Source of the DNA: Candidatus Bathyarchaeota archaeon
GTDB lineage: Archaea; Thermoproteota; Bathyarchaeia; Bathyarchaeales; Bathycorpusculaceae
DNA: 64,000 nucleotides
NCBI GenBank assembly: GCA_963832745.1
Contig: CAWHVC010000005.1
Location: 448,001-512,000, forward strand
Direction of reading: 5' to 3'
The position numbers and the translations under genes are program-made. Below the pieces are notes generated by a model that ran no database searches, had not been told where the DNA came from, and was given only the letters and a program-made list of their open reading frames with translations. This document shows, one piece after another, positions 23,117-24,582 of the stretch (the stretch's first letter is position 1; each line of letters begins with the position of its first letter).

Positions 23117-23788
23117 TTAAACCTCGTATTGTGTTGGGTCTGTTATTCCTGCTTCCTTGAAGGCTTTTTTGCGGTTCACACAGGATTCGCATCTTCCGCA
23201 GTGTTTTTCACCGTCAAGGTAGCATGACCAAGTCAACTCTAAGGGTACACCAAATTCTGCGCCAGCTTGAAGTACCTCAGATTTTTTCTTGCCGCTAAAG
23301 GGTGCTAAAATTGTAATTTCTTGGTCAGTTCCTAGTTGAGCGGCTTTTTCAAAGGCTTGATAGAATTCACGTCGACAGTCTGGATAGAAAGGTTCGTCTG
23401 AACCATGTGCGCCATAAAAAATTTTGTTTGCGCCAACGGTGACTGCATAGGCTACGGCTGCAGATAGGAAAATGGCGTTACGGAAGGGTACGATTATTGG
23501 TGCAGTGAATTCGCTGGTTAAGGGGATGTCTCGGTTTATAAGTGCGGCTGTTCCGCTAAAGATGTCTTTTAATGCTGAAAGGTCGATGATTTTTGTGTTG
23601 GTGCCGAGTTTTTCTGCGATTTTTTGGGCTGCTTGAGTTTCTTTGACGGCGATTTGTCCGTACTTGAAGGTGATTGGGTAGATTTGGTAACCTTGAGTTT
23701 TTGCCCAGTAAGCAACCACGGCGGAGTCTGGTCCACCACTAAGAACAACTATGCATTTTTTAGTTTCGTTCATACAGTTTTGCCTCAC
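23117..23788 (-). CDS. queC: 7-cyano-7-deazaguanine (preQ0) synthase
   Basis: LSGGPDS PP-loop, VPFRNAIFL, YPDCR, TWSCY...CGRCESC. Confidence 0.96.
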   Translation of the reverse strand: MRQNCMNETKKCIVVLSGGPDSAVVAYWAKTQGYQIYPITFKYGQIAVKETQAAQKIAEKLGTNTKIIDLSALKDIFSGTAALINRDIPLTSEFTAPIIVPFRNAIFLSAAVAYAVTVGANKIFYGAHGSDEPFYPDCRREFYQAFEKAAQLGTDQEITILAPFSGKKKSEVLQAGAEFGVPLELTWSCYLDGEKHCGRCESCVNRKKAFKEAGITDPTQYEV

Positions 23789-24293
23789 TATTTTTTGTTT
23801 CTAACCCTATCCAATGTTGGATACCTGCTTTCTTTAGCAGTTTAAACAGTGGCCAACCGATTAGCACGCTTGCAACAATGTTTCCAAGGGCAATGTACAC
23901 TATAGTTTCAAGAAGTGGGTAACCGTACAGGAAAGACAGCATCCACCCCACGGTTGTACCAAGAACGGCTGAGTAAGCGATGCAGGTTCCGATAACTGTG
24001 TAGTCATTGTTGGTTTTTTTGTAAATGTAGTATACTGCAAACGCCATCACAAAAGAGGGTATGGTGTTTAGCAAATCGATAAGGCCAGCTGGTGAAAAAA
24101 GGTTGGCGATAAAGACTCCCAAGGTGTGCCCCATGACGCCTGCAATTCCGAGCAGTGGCACTGCGGCAACAAGTGAGTCTGCTACTCGGACTTGAAGGGG
24201 TCCATAGGATAATCCTGGAAGAAAAAGTACTAACGCAGCATAAAGTGCGGCGTATACCGATATTAAAGCTAATGTTTTGGTTTTGTTTTGCAA
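23760..24293 (-). CDS. queT: QueT family 7-deazaguanine precursor transporter (ECF S component)
   Basis: AALYAAL...LSYGPLQVRVAD, GVFIANLFSP.GLID; overlaps queC. Confidence 0.9.
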   Translation of the reverse strand: MQNKTKTLALISVYAALYAALVLFLPGLSYGPLQVRVADSLVAAVPLLGIAGVMGHTLGVFIANLFSPAGLIDLLNTIPSFVMAFAVYYIYKKTNNDYTVIGTCIAYSAVLGTTVGWMLSFLYGYPLLETIVYIALGNIVASVLIGWPLFKLLKKAGIQHWIGLETKNSEAKLYERN

Positions 24294-24300
24294 TCGAAAT

Positions 24301-24358
24301 CCTCCCTACCCCGGGTTTTATACTTGGCGGAACGGGTGGGAGATTACTCACCCGCCAA
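24301..24358 (-). ncRNA. Candidate riboswitch (preQ0/preQ1-type translational pseudoknot) in the queT-queC leader
   Basis: UUGGCGG/CCGCCAA stem; loop UCUCCCACCC complementary to GGGUAGGGAGG (the SD region); A-rich linker UAUAAAA; competing hairpin CGGGUG/CACCCG. Confidence 0.6.
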
Positions 24359-24582
24359 TTGCAGACAGAAATCGTTGGGTTTCATAAAAAGGTTTGCCGG
24401 GGAAGTCGAGATTGGAATATTTCGGTTTCGGAAATACCACTTATAACTAAATTCGGTCATATTAAGAATCAAGAAGCGGCTTAGATAGAAAGGGGCTAAG
24501 CGGCAAAAGAGAAAGGGGAAGAAAAAGCTCGAGGGAGAGGGGAAGGCTTCCAAGAGGGAAGGAGAAAAGGAGAAGGCAAAAC

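Follow-up and report, generated by a model that had tools for sequence, protein, structure and literature searches.

The closest described systems are the preQ1 riboswitches, of which three classes are described, all from bacteria as far as the available text of PMC11625349 goes. According to the same text, the ligand of these pseudoknot classes sits at a helix junction. The preQ1-I class carries a strictly conserved specificity cytosine in L2, beside the 3' strand of P1. The preQ1-II class is a four-helix HLout pseudoknot in which a P4 hairpin precedes the SD strand; its control is translational only, and it is reported from Bacillota alone. The preQ1-III class is about 100 nt long and has five helices and a platform that is distant from the pocket (PMC11625349 for all three classes, in the portion available). 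Bacterial preQ1 riboswitches, in the available portions of PMC11625349 and PMC5372724, control the same gene set as the archaeal motif described here. For archaea, the accessible part of PMC5473149 reports few riboswitch classes, mainly the TPP and fluoride riboswitches, which are the commonest ones reported there and are shared with bacteria.

The leader analysed in this study precedes queT and queC in Candidatus Bathyarchaeota archaeon, within the window, which is the whole stretch of 64,000 nt of DNA that was analysed. The motif to which it belongs is filed as a new structural class within a known kind of regulator. We consider it probable that this candidate class is an SD-sequestering H-type pseudoknot riboswitch that acts as a translational OFF switch, with preQ0 as the probable ligand.

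The queT-queC leader

The element spanned positions 24358-24301 of the minus strand, ahead of queT and then queC, and the loop of its P1 paired with the SD region of queT. The minus-strand RNA that an earlier, sequence-only reading had written out for this locus was confirmed from the window sequence, with P1, the loop, the SD and TTTTTAT in place. The features of the locus were as follows.

24396-24391, minus strand: BRE-like A-rich stretch, from the sequence and the upstream alignment
24390-24384, minus strand: TATA-like TTTTTAT, about 30 nt upstream of the element
24359..24364, minus strand: zone of the predicted transcription start, 1-6 nt ahead of P1, from the TATA distance
Directly before P1, minus strand: 5' flank of P1, GCAA
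24352..24358, minus strand: 5' strand of P1, UUGGCGG
24344..24351, minus strand: L1, GUGAGUAA, 8 nt
24333..24343, minus strand: 5' strand of P2 (anti-SD), UCUCCCACCCG
24331..24332, minus strand: L2, UU
24324..24330, minus strand: 3' strand of P1, CCGCCAA
24314..24323, minus strand: L3, A-rich linker, GUAUAAAACC
24301..24313, minus strand: 3' strand of P2 including the SD, CGGGGUAGGGAGG, to which the loop UCUCCCACCCG is complementary
24305-24301, minus strand: SD GGAGG, matching the 16S 3' end CCUCCU
24291..24293, minus strand: UUG start codon of queT, 7 nt past the SD, after the spacer AUUUCGA
23760..24293, minus strand: queT, 177 aa, predicted S-component of a 7-deazaguanine-precursor transporter (Pfam PF06177, 8.6e-23)
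23117..23788, minus strand: queC, 7-cyano-7-deazaguanine synthase (Pfam PF06508, 4.6e-63)

The alignment to the covariance model placed two bulges, G24310 and A24307, in the 3' strand of P2. GGAGG at 24305-24301 was taken as the true SD because the host 16S rRNA ends in ...GGAUCACCUCCU. Additionally, the 5' flank GCAAUUG (24362-24356, minus strand) was complementary to CGAUUGC (24296-24290, minus strand), which spans the UUG start codon. This pairing was present in the window and its closest relatives, and it was used by the nested minimum-energy fold.

Both of the genes that had been placed behind the leader from the sequence were identified by Pfam, and QueC also exceeded the cut-off of NCBIfam TIGR00364 (196.7 bits, cut-off 150.3). 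Since queC overlaps the end of queT, the two genes were read as one operon. TGT was present in the host genome (99% complete), in which QueD and QueF had no match; a single QueE query retrieved no ortholog there, its only matches being two weak radical-SAM ones. The TGT match (G000:C5:301057-302028, outside the window) contained one in-frame TAG. A host with QueT, QueC and TGT in which QueD, a QueE ortholog and QueF were not found apparently needs to import a 7-deazaguanine precursor, which suggests that its route to archaeosine is salvage-only. The compound imported by the host is possibly CDG and not preQ0.

The predicted transcript start was examined by aligning 248 unique upstream regions at the G of GCGGG. 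In these regions, positions -39..-37 contained 52-53% A and positions -33..-30 contained 82-90% A+T, so that an A-rich stretch and then a T/A box occupied a fixed place at -39..-29 from the P1 core, as they did in the genus set. The TTTTTAT of the window fell exactly at -35..-29 of the anchored alignment. Archaeal TATA boxes lie at a usual spacing from the start, and this value, applied to the fixed distance of the box, placed the start a few nucleotides before P1. Transcription is therefore predicted to begin a few bases 5' of P1, with the element at the 5' end of the mRNA. The earlier proposal of a TATA-like box that sets the start at the 5' end of the element agreed with these data, the box being at a conserved, fixed distance and the start being predicted from it.

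Comparison with known riboswitch classes

The motif had the strand order of preQ1-I, P1-L1-P2-L2-P1'-L3-P2', with an A-rich L3 directly 3' of P1. The L1 of preQ1-I is very short, whereas the L1 of the motif had at least 8 nt, was longer in most relatives and carried the anti-SD. The core of the motif (55-75 nt) was about twice as long as the Rfam PreQ1 model, which has 45 positions. Its P2 of about 12 bp with conserved bulges and its occurrence in archaea also set it apart from preQ1-I, and its L2 was UU (97% and 100%), with no cytosine beside the 3' strand of P1. The two are alike in having the SD in or next to P2, in their association with queT and que biosynthesis genes, and in a presumed pocket at the junction (PMC11625349, in its available text). 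The same text describes preQ1-II, like the motif, as lying before queT and burying the complete SD in a pseudoknot helix below the presumed pocket. Unlike preQ1-II, the motif had an L3 that ran straight into the 3' strand of P2 with no P4, and it had no upstream P1 hairpin. The position before queT and the anti-SD/SD pairing were shared with preQ1-III, but the motif was smaller and its platform was inside the pseudoknot. TPP and fluoride riboswitches are bacterial classes that archaea share, whereas the motif was archaeal only among the model-confirmed matches listed (77/77).

The sequence-only reading had seen no match to the bacterial preQ1 consensus by eye, and the Infernal comparison with preQ1-I, -II and -III likewise gave none. 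In the whole genome, 0 matches at E <= 1 were obtained for preQ1-I (RF00522, gathering score 39 bits), preQ1-II (RF01054, 47 bits) and preQ1-III (RF02680, 63 bits), with positive controls in Bacillus subtilis, Lactococcus lactis and a control genome, respectively. No Rfam family matched the RNA strand of the window at E <= 10, and none reached the gathering score in 16 diverse copies of the motif. Weak matches to an L2-Alphaproteobacteria leader (14.8 bits), Acido-1, HOTAIRM1_3, mir-1228 and Fibrobacter-1 were on the wrong strand or unrelated and far under the gathering scores, and were taken as chance. The literature searched, in its main text, contained no description of such a motif, and a mention elsewhere is possible.

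A second, smaller conserved leader was observed before QueT paralogs (about 32% identity to the window QueT) in sister genomes (L028:1449-1497; L029, L345-L348, L350). It consisted of a 5-bp GGUAG/CUACC helix with the loop UUUCCGUAUAUAAC, followed by UUAAAAAACC(C)GG, located about 12-15 nt upstream of the ATG, and had no Rfam match. Its short L1, the C just before the 3' strand of P1 and its A-rich tail were similar to those of preQ1-I. The exact pattern of this small leader was found in 2 of 201 genomes of the order, one of them from a genus that had given no match to the main motif. The tail ...AAAACCCGG was common to the small, class-I-like leader and the main motif, and for this reason the main motif may have arisen by expansion from an ancestor similar to preQ1-I.

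Distribution of the motif

The QueT search covered 61 related genomes, with matches in 50 of them (30/36 in the same genus). At all 25 same-genus queT orthologs, which had 60-80% protein identity, the leader was almost unchanged, and the same was found at two queT loci in other families of the order; the leader was far better conserved than the QueT protein downstream. Because MAFFT misaligned the two out-of-genus leaders, the first covariance model (R1) was limited to the 25 leaders of the genus, and its sole structure was P1. R1 matched 114 of the 151 genomes of the order sample, or 83 of the 105 high-quality ones, and had matches in 12 of 12 families of the order, nearly always with one copy per genome. 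Model R2, which was rebuilt from 100 matches, matched 93 of 151 genomes in the class sample, 28 of 151 in the phylum sample and 26 of 151 in the Asgard sample (the phylum of a Hodarchaeota-labelled genome). The R2 matches outside the class came from four families (9/15, 3/3, 2/2 and one more).

A scan of one genome per prokaryote species with a degenerate pattern gave at least 118 stretches, 80 of which were listed. Among these 80, 77 passed the model and all 77 were archaeal records. The labels of the model-confirmed matches listed were mostly Bathyarchaeia or Bathyarchaeota, and the others were Methanomethylicota, Nitrososphaerota, Promethearchaeota and Hodarchaeota. Three bacterial records among the listed pattern matches failed the covariance model, and a scan of viral contigs gave 4 stretches, 0 of which passed it. 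The range of the motif extended beyond Bathyarchaeia to other Thermoproteota lineages and to Asgard genomes. The collection of leaders from Bathyarchaeia and other archaea, which the sequence-only reading had proposed, showed a leader conserved in two phyla.

Covariation of the pseudoknot

Folding of the single sequence was uninformative as a test, since the pseudoknot is invisible to nested folding (z = -1.06; 29 of 200 shuffles folded as well). Pairing was analysed in 93 representatives that differed from one another by at least 7 edits and were aligned with model R3, whose structure is P2. The results showed that 91.1% of the cells of P1 and P2 held standard pairs, compared with 81.6 +/- 0.5 in shuffled alignments, and that 15 of the 19 pairs had changes on both sides. 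Double-change cells numbered 168, against 58.4 +/- 5.6 in shuffled alignments (0 of 500 shuffles reached 168) and at most 47 in slid controls, in an alignment that is fitted to P2, where some double changes come from the short-loop subclass being shifted in register by one base and where the kinship of the 93 sequences makes the shuffle tests overstate significance. P1 covaried although it lies outside the structure of R3. Its closing pair, 9-40, was GC in 84 sequences and CG in 9, and its pair 5-44 was GC in 62, AU in 20, GU in 4, UA in 2 and CG in 1. When the alignment was made with the P1-only model, in which the three P2b pairs are fixed by the search pattern, there were 51 double-change cells compared with 16.8 +/- 3.0 in shuffled alignments.

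An alignment-free comparison revealed that 81 of 93 loops paired better with the tail of the same sequence than with tails taken from the other representatives, the mean loop-tail energy being -16.6 kcal/mol for the own tail, -14.2 for others and -11.4 for the shuffled own tail. RNAalifold recovered P1 independently and added a pair between the first G of L1 and the second U of L2, which was GU in 92 of 93 sequences. P2 was also found in replaced form, with CCUCC/GGAGG changed to UUUCCGA/UCGGAA, and in the further variants GUCUCAUG/CAAAGAGAC, CCACC/GGUGG, CCUUCC/GGAAGG, CAUCUCC/GGAGAUG and CCUCGCA/UGCGAGG. In 8 of 12 cases, a C-to-U change in the middle strand was matched by a G-to-A change in the tail. 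Across the copies, P1 had 5-7 bp, and P2 had about 12 bp with conserved bulges and the whole SD inside. These analyses confirmed the element as a genuine RNA pseudoknot, which covaries, is widespread and blocks the SD in front of 7-deazaguanine genes. The OFF fold that had been drawn from the single locus, P1 with an SD-burying H-type pseudoknot, is the fold in which the compensatory changes were found, and the covariation among orthologs by which it was to be checked was present.

Seven unique copies (L176, L177, L179, L181, L163, L121 and L027) formed a subtype with the tail AAACCCC-AAAA-GGGAGG, without the CGG partner of the lower P2. The subtype retained P1, GU, CCG-UU (or CU/AU) and AAACCCC.

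Competing folds

In the window, the predicted energies were -9.9 kcal/mol for P1 alone, -17.2 kcal/mol for the loop-tail P2 duplex and -10.0 kcal/mol for the SD with the 16S tail. The predicted P2 duplex was stronger than the SD-16S duplex, and because P2 is predicted to be stable alone, a dependence on ligand was not evident from the energetics.

The sequence-only reading had proposed the hairpin CGGGUG/CACCCG as the ON state of the switch. This hairpin had an energy of -9.4 kcal/mol in the window and was formable in 94.5% of cells, yet it showed no covariation beyond shuffles in the 93 representatives and lost one pair in the 9 sequences in which the P1 pair changed from G-C to C-G. It was rejected as a conserved element. 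A helix in which the GUGG of L1 pairs with CCAC from the centre of the anti-SD strand (alignment A10, columns 15-18 with 29-33) was paired in 93.4% of cells. It had 7 double-change cells compared with 1.6 +/- 1.2, and in 4 sequences a U-A pair had become C-G. This helix excludes the middle of P2, which itself covaries, and two mutually exclusive helices that both covary are the pattern expected of a switch. GUGG/CCAC appears to be a better competitor than the proposed ON hairpin, with modest support from the alignment. GUGG was present in the L1 of most relatives and has been lost from the window subclade, whose L1 is GUGAGUAA (24351-24344), so that the competitor helix cannot form there.

Near-invariant bases at the junction

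Several unpaired bases were close to invariant in the 93 representatives. The first two bases of L1 were G and U (99% and 100%), the two bases of L2 before the 3' strand of P1 were U and U (97% and 100%), and the L3 positions A..A.AA.CC were 97-100% conserved, with A58, A61, A63 and A64 being 97-100% A. The flanking pairs of P1 (GCG/CGC) and the lower pairs of P2 (CCG/CGG) were also near-fixed. The invariant bases (GU, CCG-UU and A.AA.CC) clustered at the point where P1 and P2 meet, and this was the case in two archaeal phyla.

Genes downstream of the motif

After removal of duplicates, 275 model matches gave 254 unique copies. The counts do not include five secondary or partial cmsearch rows, of which L120 was partial and L132, L115, L135 and L203 were matches on the antisense strand or second matches; the representative sets do not include L164, which is cut off by a contig end. 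Pfam analysis of 97 first downstream ORFs identified QueT in 96 and QueC in 1; L049, L053 and L085, which had short ORF calls, were outside this set and inside the three-frame HMM counts. In the latter, QueT was downstream of 238 of the 254 unique copies, and QueC was within 1.5 kb in 78 of those. A QueE-like radical-SAM gene followed 4 copies, QueC-QueT followed 1 and a membrane protein without family assignment followed 6, while 5 lay at a contig end. Overall, the gene downstream could be read at 249 copies, and at 243 of these it was a 7-deazaguanine gene. QueT was also behind all 13 newly fetched loci of the Asgard sample.

The five best NCBIfam matches of the QueE-like genes were all QueE families, under the curated cut-offs. 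At the two loci scanned further downstream (L227 and L277), the ORF after the QueE-like gene was QueC or a GATase-QueC fusion. The fusion (L277:3726-5192), located behind the motif-controlled queE-like gene, is a protein of 489 aa with a glutamine amidotransferase domain and QueC, and we take it to resemble the crenarchaeal GAT-QueC proteins that have been linked to the formation of archaeosine. The motif occurred three times in one genome (G433; L337, L338 and L339): one copy headed queE-queC, another a second queE-like gene, and a third queT followed by a QueC-like gene. The second queE-like gene of this genome had an in-frame stop just upstream of its putative start.

The membrane protein without family assignment had about 230-277 aa (L131:1570-2271, L133/L269, L270:3871-4566, L258:863-1549, L218 and L244:5727-6557) and matched no Pfam or NCBIfam family. 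Its identification as a QueT was rejected, as hhalign gave only a weak profile similarity to QueT, with probabilities of 24.9% (to the N-terminus of QueT) and 8.8%. We regard the protein as a candidate for a new transporter of 7-deazaguanines. In five of its loci it was followed by a conserved ORF of 66-69 aa, which at L131, the one scanned, had only sub-threshold zinc-ribbon Pfam matches.

Discussion

One general feature of riboswitches, a conserved and covarying structure in the 5' leaders of the genes of one pathway, was found for this motif. Of the new 7-deazaguanine riboswitch class that had been proposed from the single locus, the covarying pseudoknot, the burial of the SD, the tie to the genes and the lack of a preQ1 match, all as expected of such a class, were supported, and the ON fold was not. 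Among the possible signals preQ0 is the most likely, because it is the last free base, and so the end product, of the regulated steps.

In the mechanism that we propose, the motif would head the 5' end of the queT, queT-queC and queE-queC mRNAs, and its invariant junction would be the pocket that receives a 7-deazaguanine in free form, preQ0 being the likeliest. The bound ligand would stabilise P2 stacked on P1, and the stabilised P2 would keep the 30S subunit off the SD. When the base is plentiful, its import (QueT) and synthesis (QueC and QueE) would be shut off together. Without ligand, P2 would open. In most lineages the opening would be aided by the helix of the L1 GUGG with the CCAC of the anti-SD strand, and in the window subclade, which is without this competitor, the switch would work by plain opening and closing of the pseudoknot. 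The absence of a cytosine at the class-I specificity position speaks against preQ0 and bears on both the recognition and the ligand. The loss of the only covariation-supported competitor helix from the window subclade speaks against a switch.

The identity of the ligand is where a different riboswitch could be considered, with CDG, 7-amido-7-deazaguanine, the archaeosine base, queuine or a purine with another Watson-Crick face in the place of preQ0. An invariant U is present where class I has its specificity cytosine, and the closing pair of P1 changed from G-C to C-G in 9 of 93 sequences. Also, the host, without QueD and QueE, keeps QueC behind QueT, and its import may be of CDG. Such a ligand is nevertheless unlikely, since end-product feedback by preQ0 is the simplest control for queT, queC and queE jointly and since only one membrane family without assignment is associated with the motif outside 7-deazaguanine metabolism.

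It is quite improbable that the pseudoknot is read by a trans factor, such as an RNA-binding protein of the archaeosine pathway (ArcTGT, or a partner to which the leader would be a tRNA-like substrate) or an uncharged or unmodified tRNA. The invariant unpaired bases would fit a protein or RNA partner equally well, but in a core of 55-75 nt kept over two phyla they are placed at the junction, which is the usual site of a metabolite pocket (PMC11625349, in the text available). TGT is encoded in the host genome, but no recurring regulator gene was noticed beside the motif in an informal look at the loci examined. Archaea have very few validated riboswitch classes according to the available part of PMC5473149, but the gene set of the motif mirrors that of the bacterial preQ1 riboswitches. 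A ligand-independent pseudoknot that masks the SD, for low constitutive translation or in response to temperature or Mg2+, would be consistent with a P2 predicted to be stable without ligand (-17.2 kcal/mol) and with a window subclade that has no supported alternative fold, but it is highly improbable because masking needs no unpaired bases of L1, L2 and L3 that are 97-100% conserved across phyla, because it leaves the 7-deazaguanine genes at 243 of 249 readable copies unexplained (the other 6 being one membrane family), and because the conserved bulges and the competing helix of most lineages point to a tuned, switchable P2.

A preQ0-responsive pseudoknot is the reading that we prefer. Whether it is also the first riboswitch class native to archaea and a fourth solution to the sensing of 7-deazaguanines, one that responds to preQ0 and not to preQ1 and in which an invariant junction of the G.U/U.U type replaces the cytosine of all three bacterial classes, is a question on which we find the balance to be even. 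The motif was present in about two-thirds of the sampled Bathyarchaeia genomes and about one-sixth of the Asgard sample, and it would be a substantial addition if this is true. An enrichment culture of a motif carrier exists among the named records, and the prediction could be tested there. As a genomic marker of 7-deazaguanine genes, the motif flags the membrane family as a candidate transporter and exposes salvage-only lifestyles, of which the window host appears to be an example. If the reading holds, the supply of the archaeosine precursor in these archaea would be under feedback from a metabolite through RNA, and a new small pseudoknot pocket would be available for structural work.
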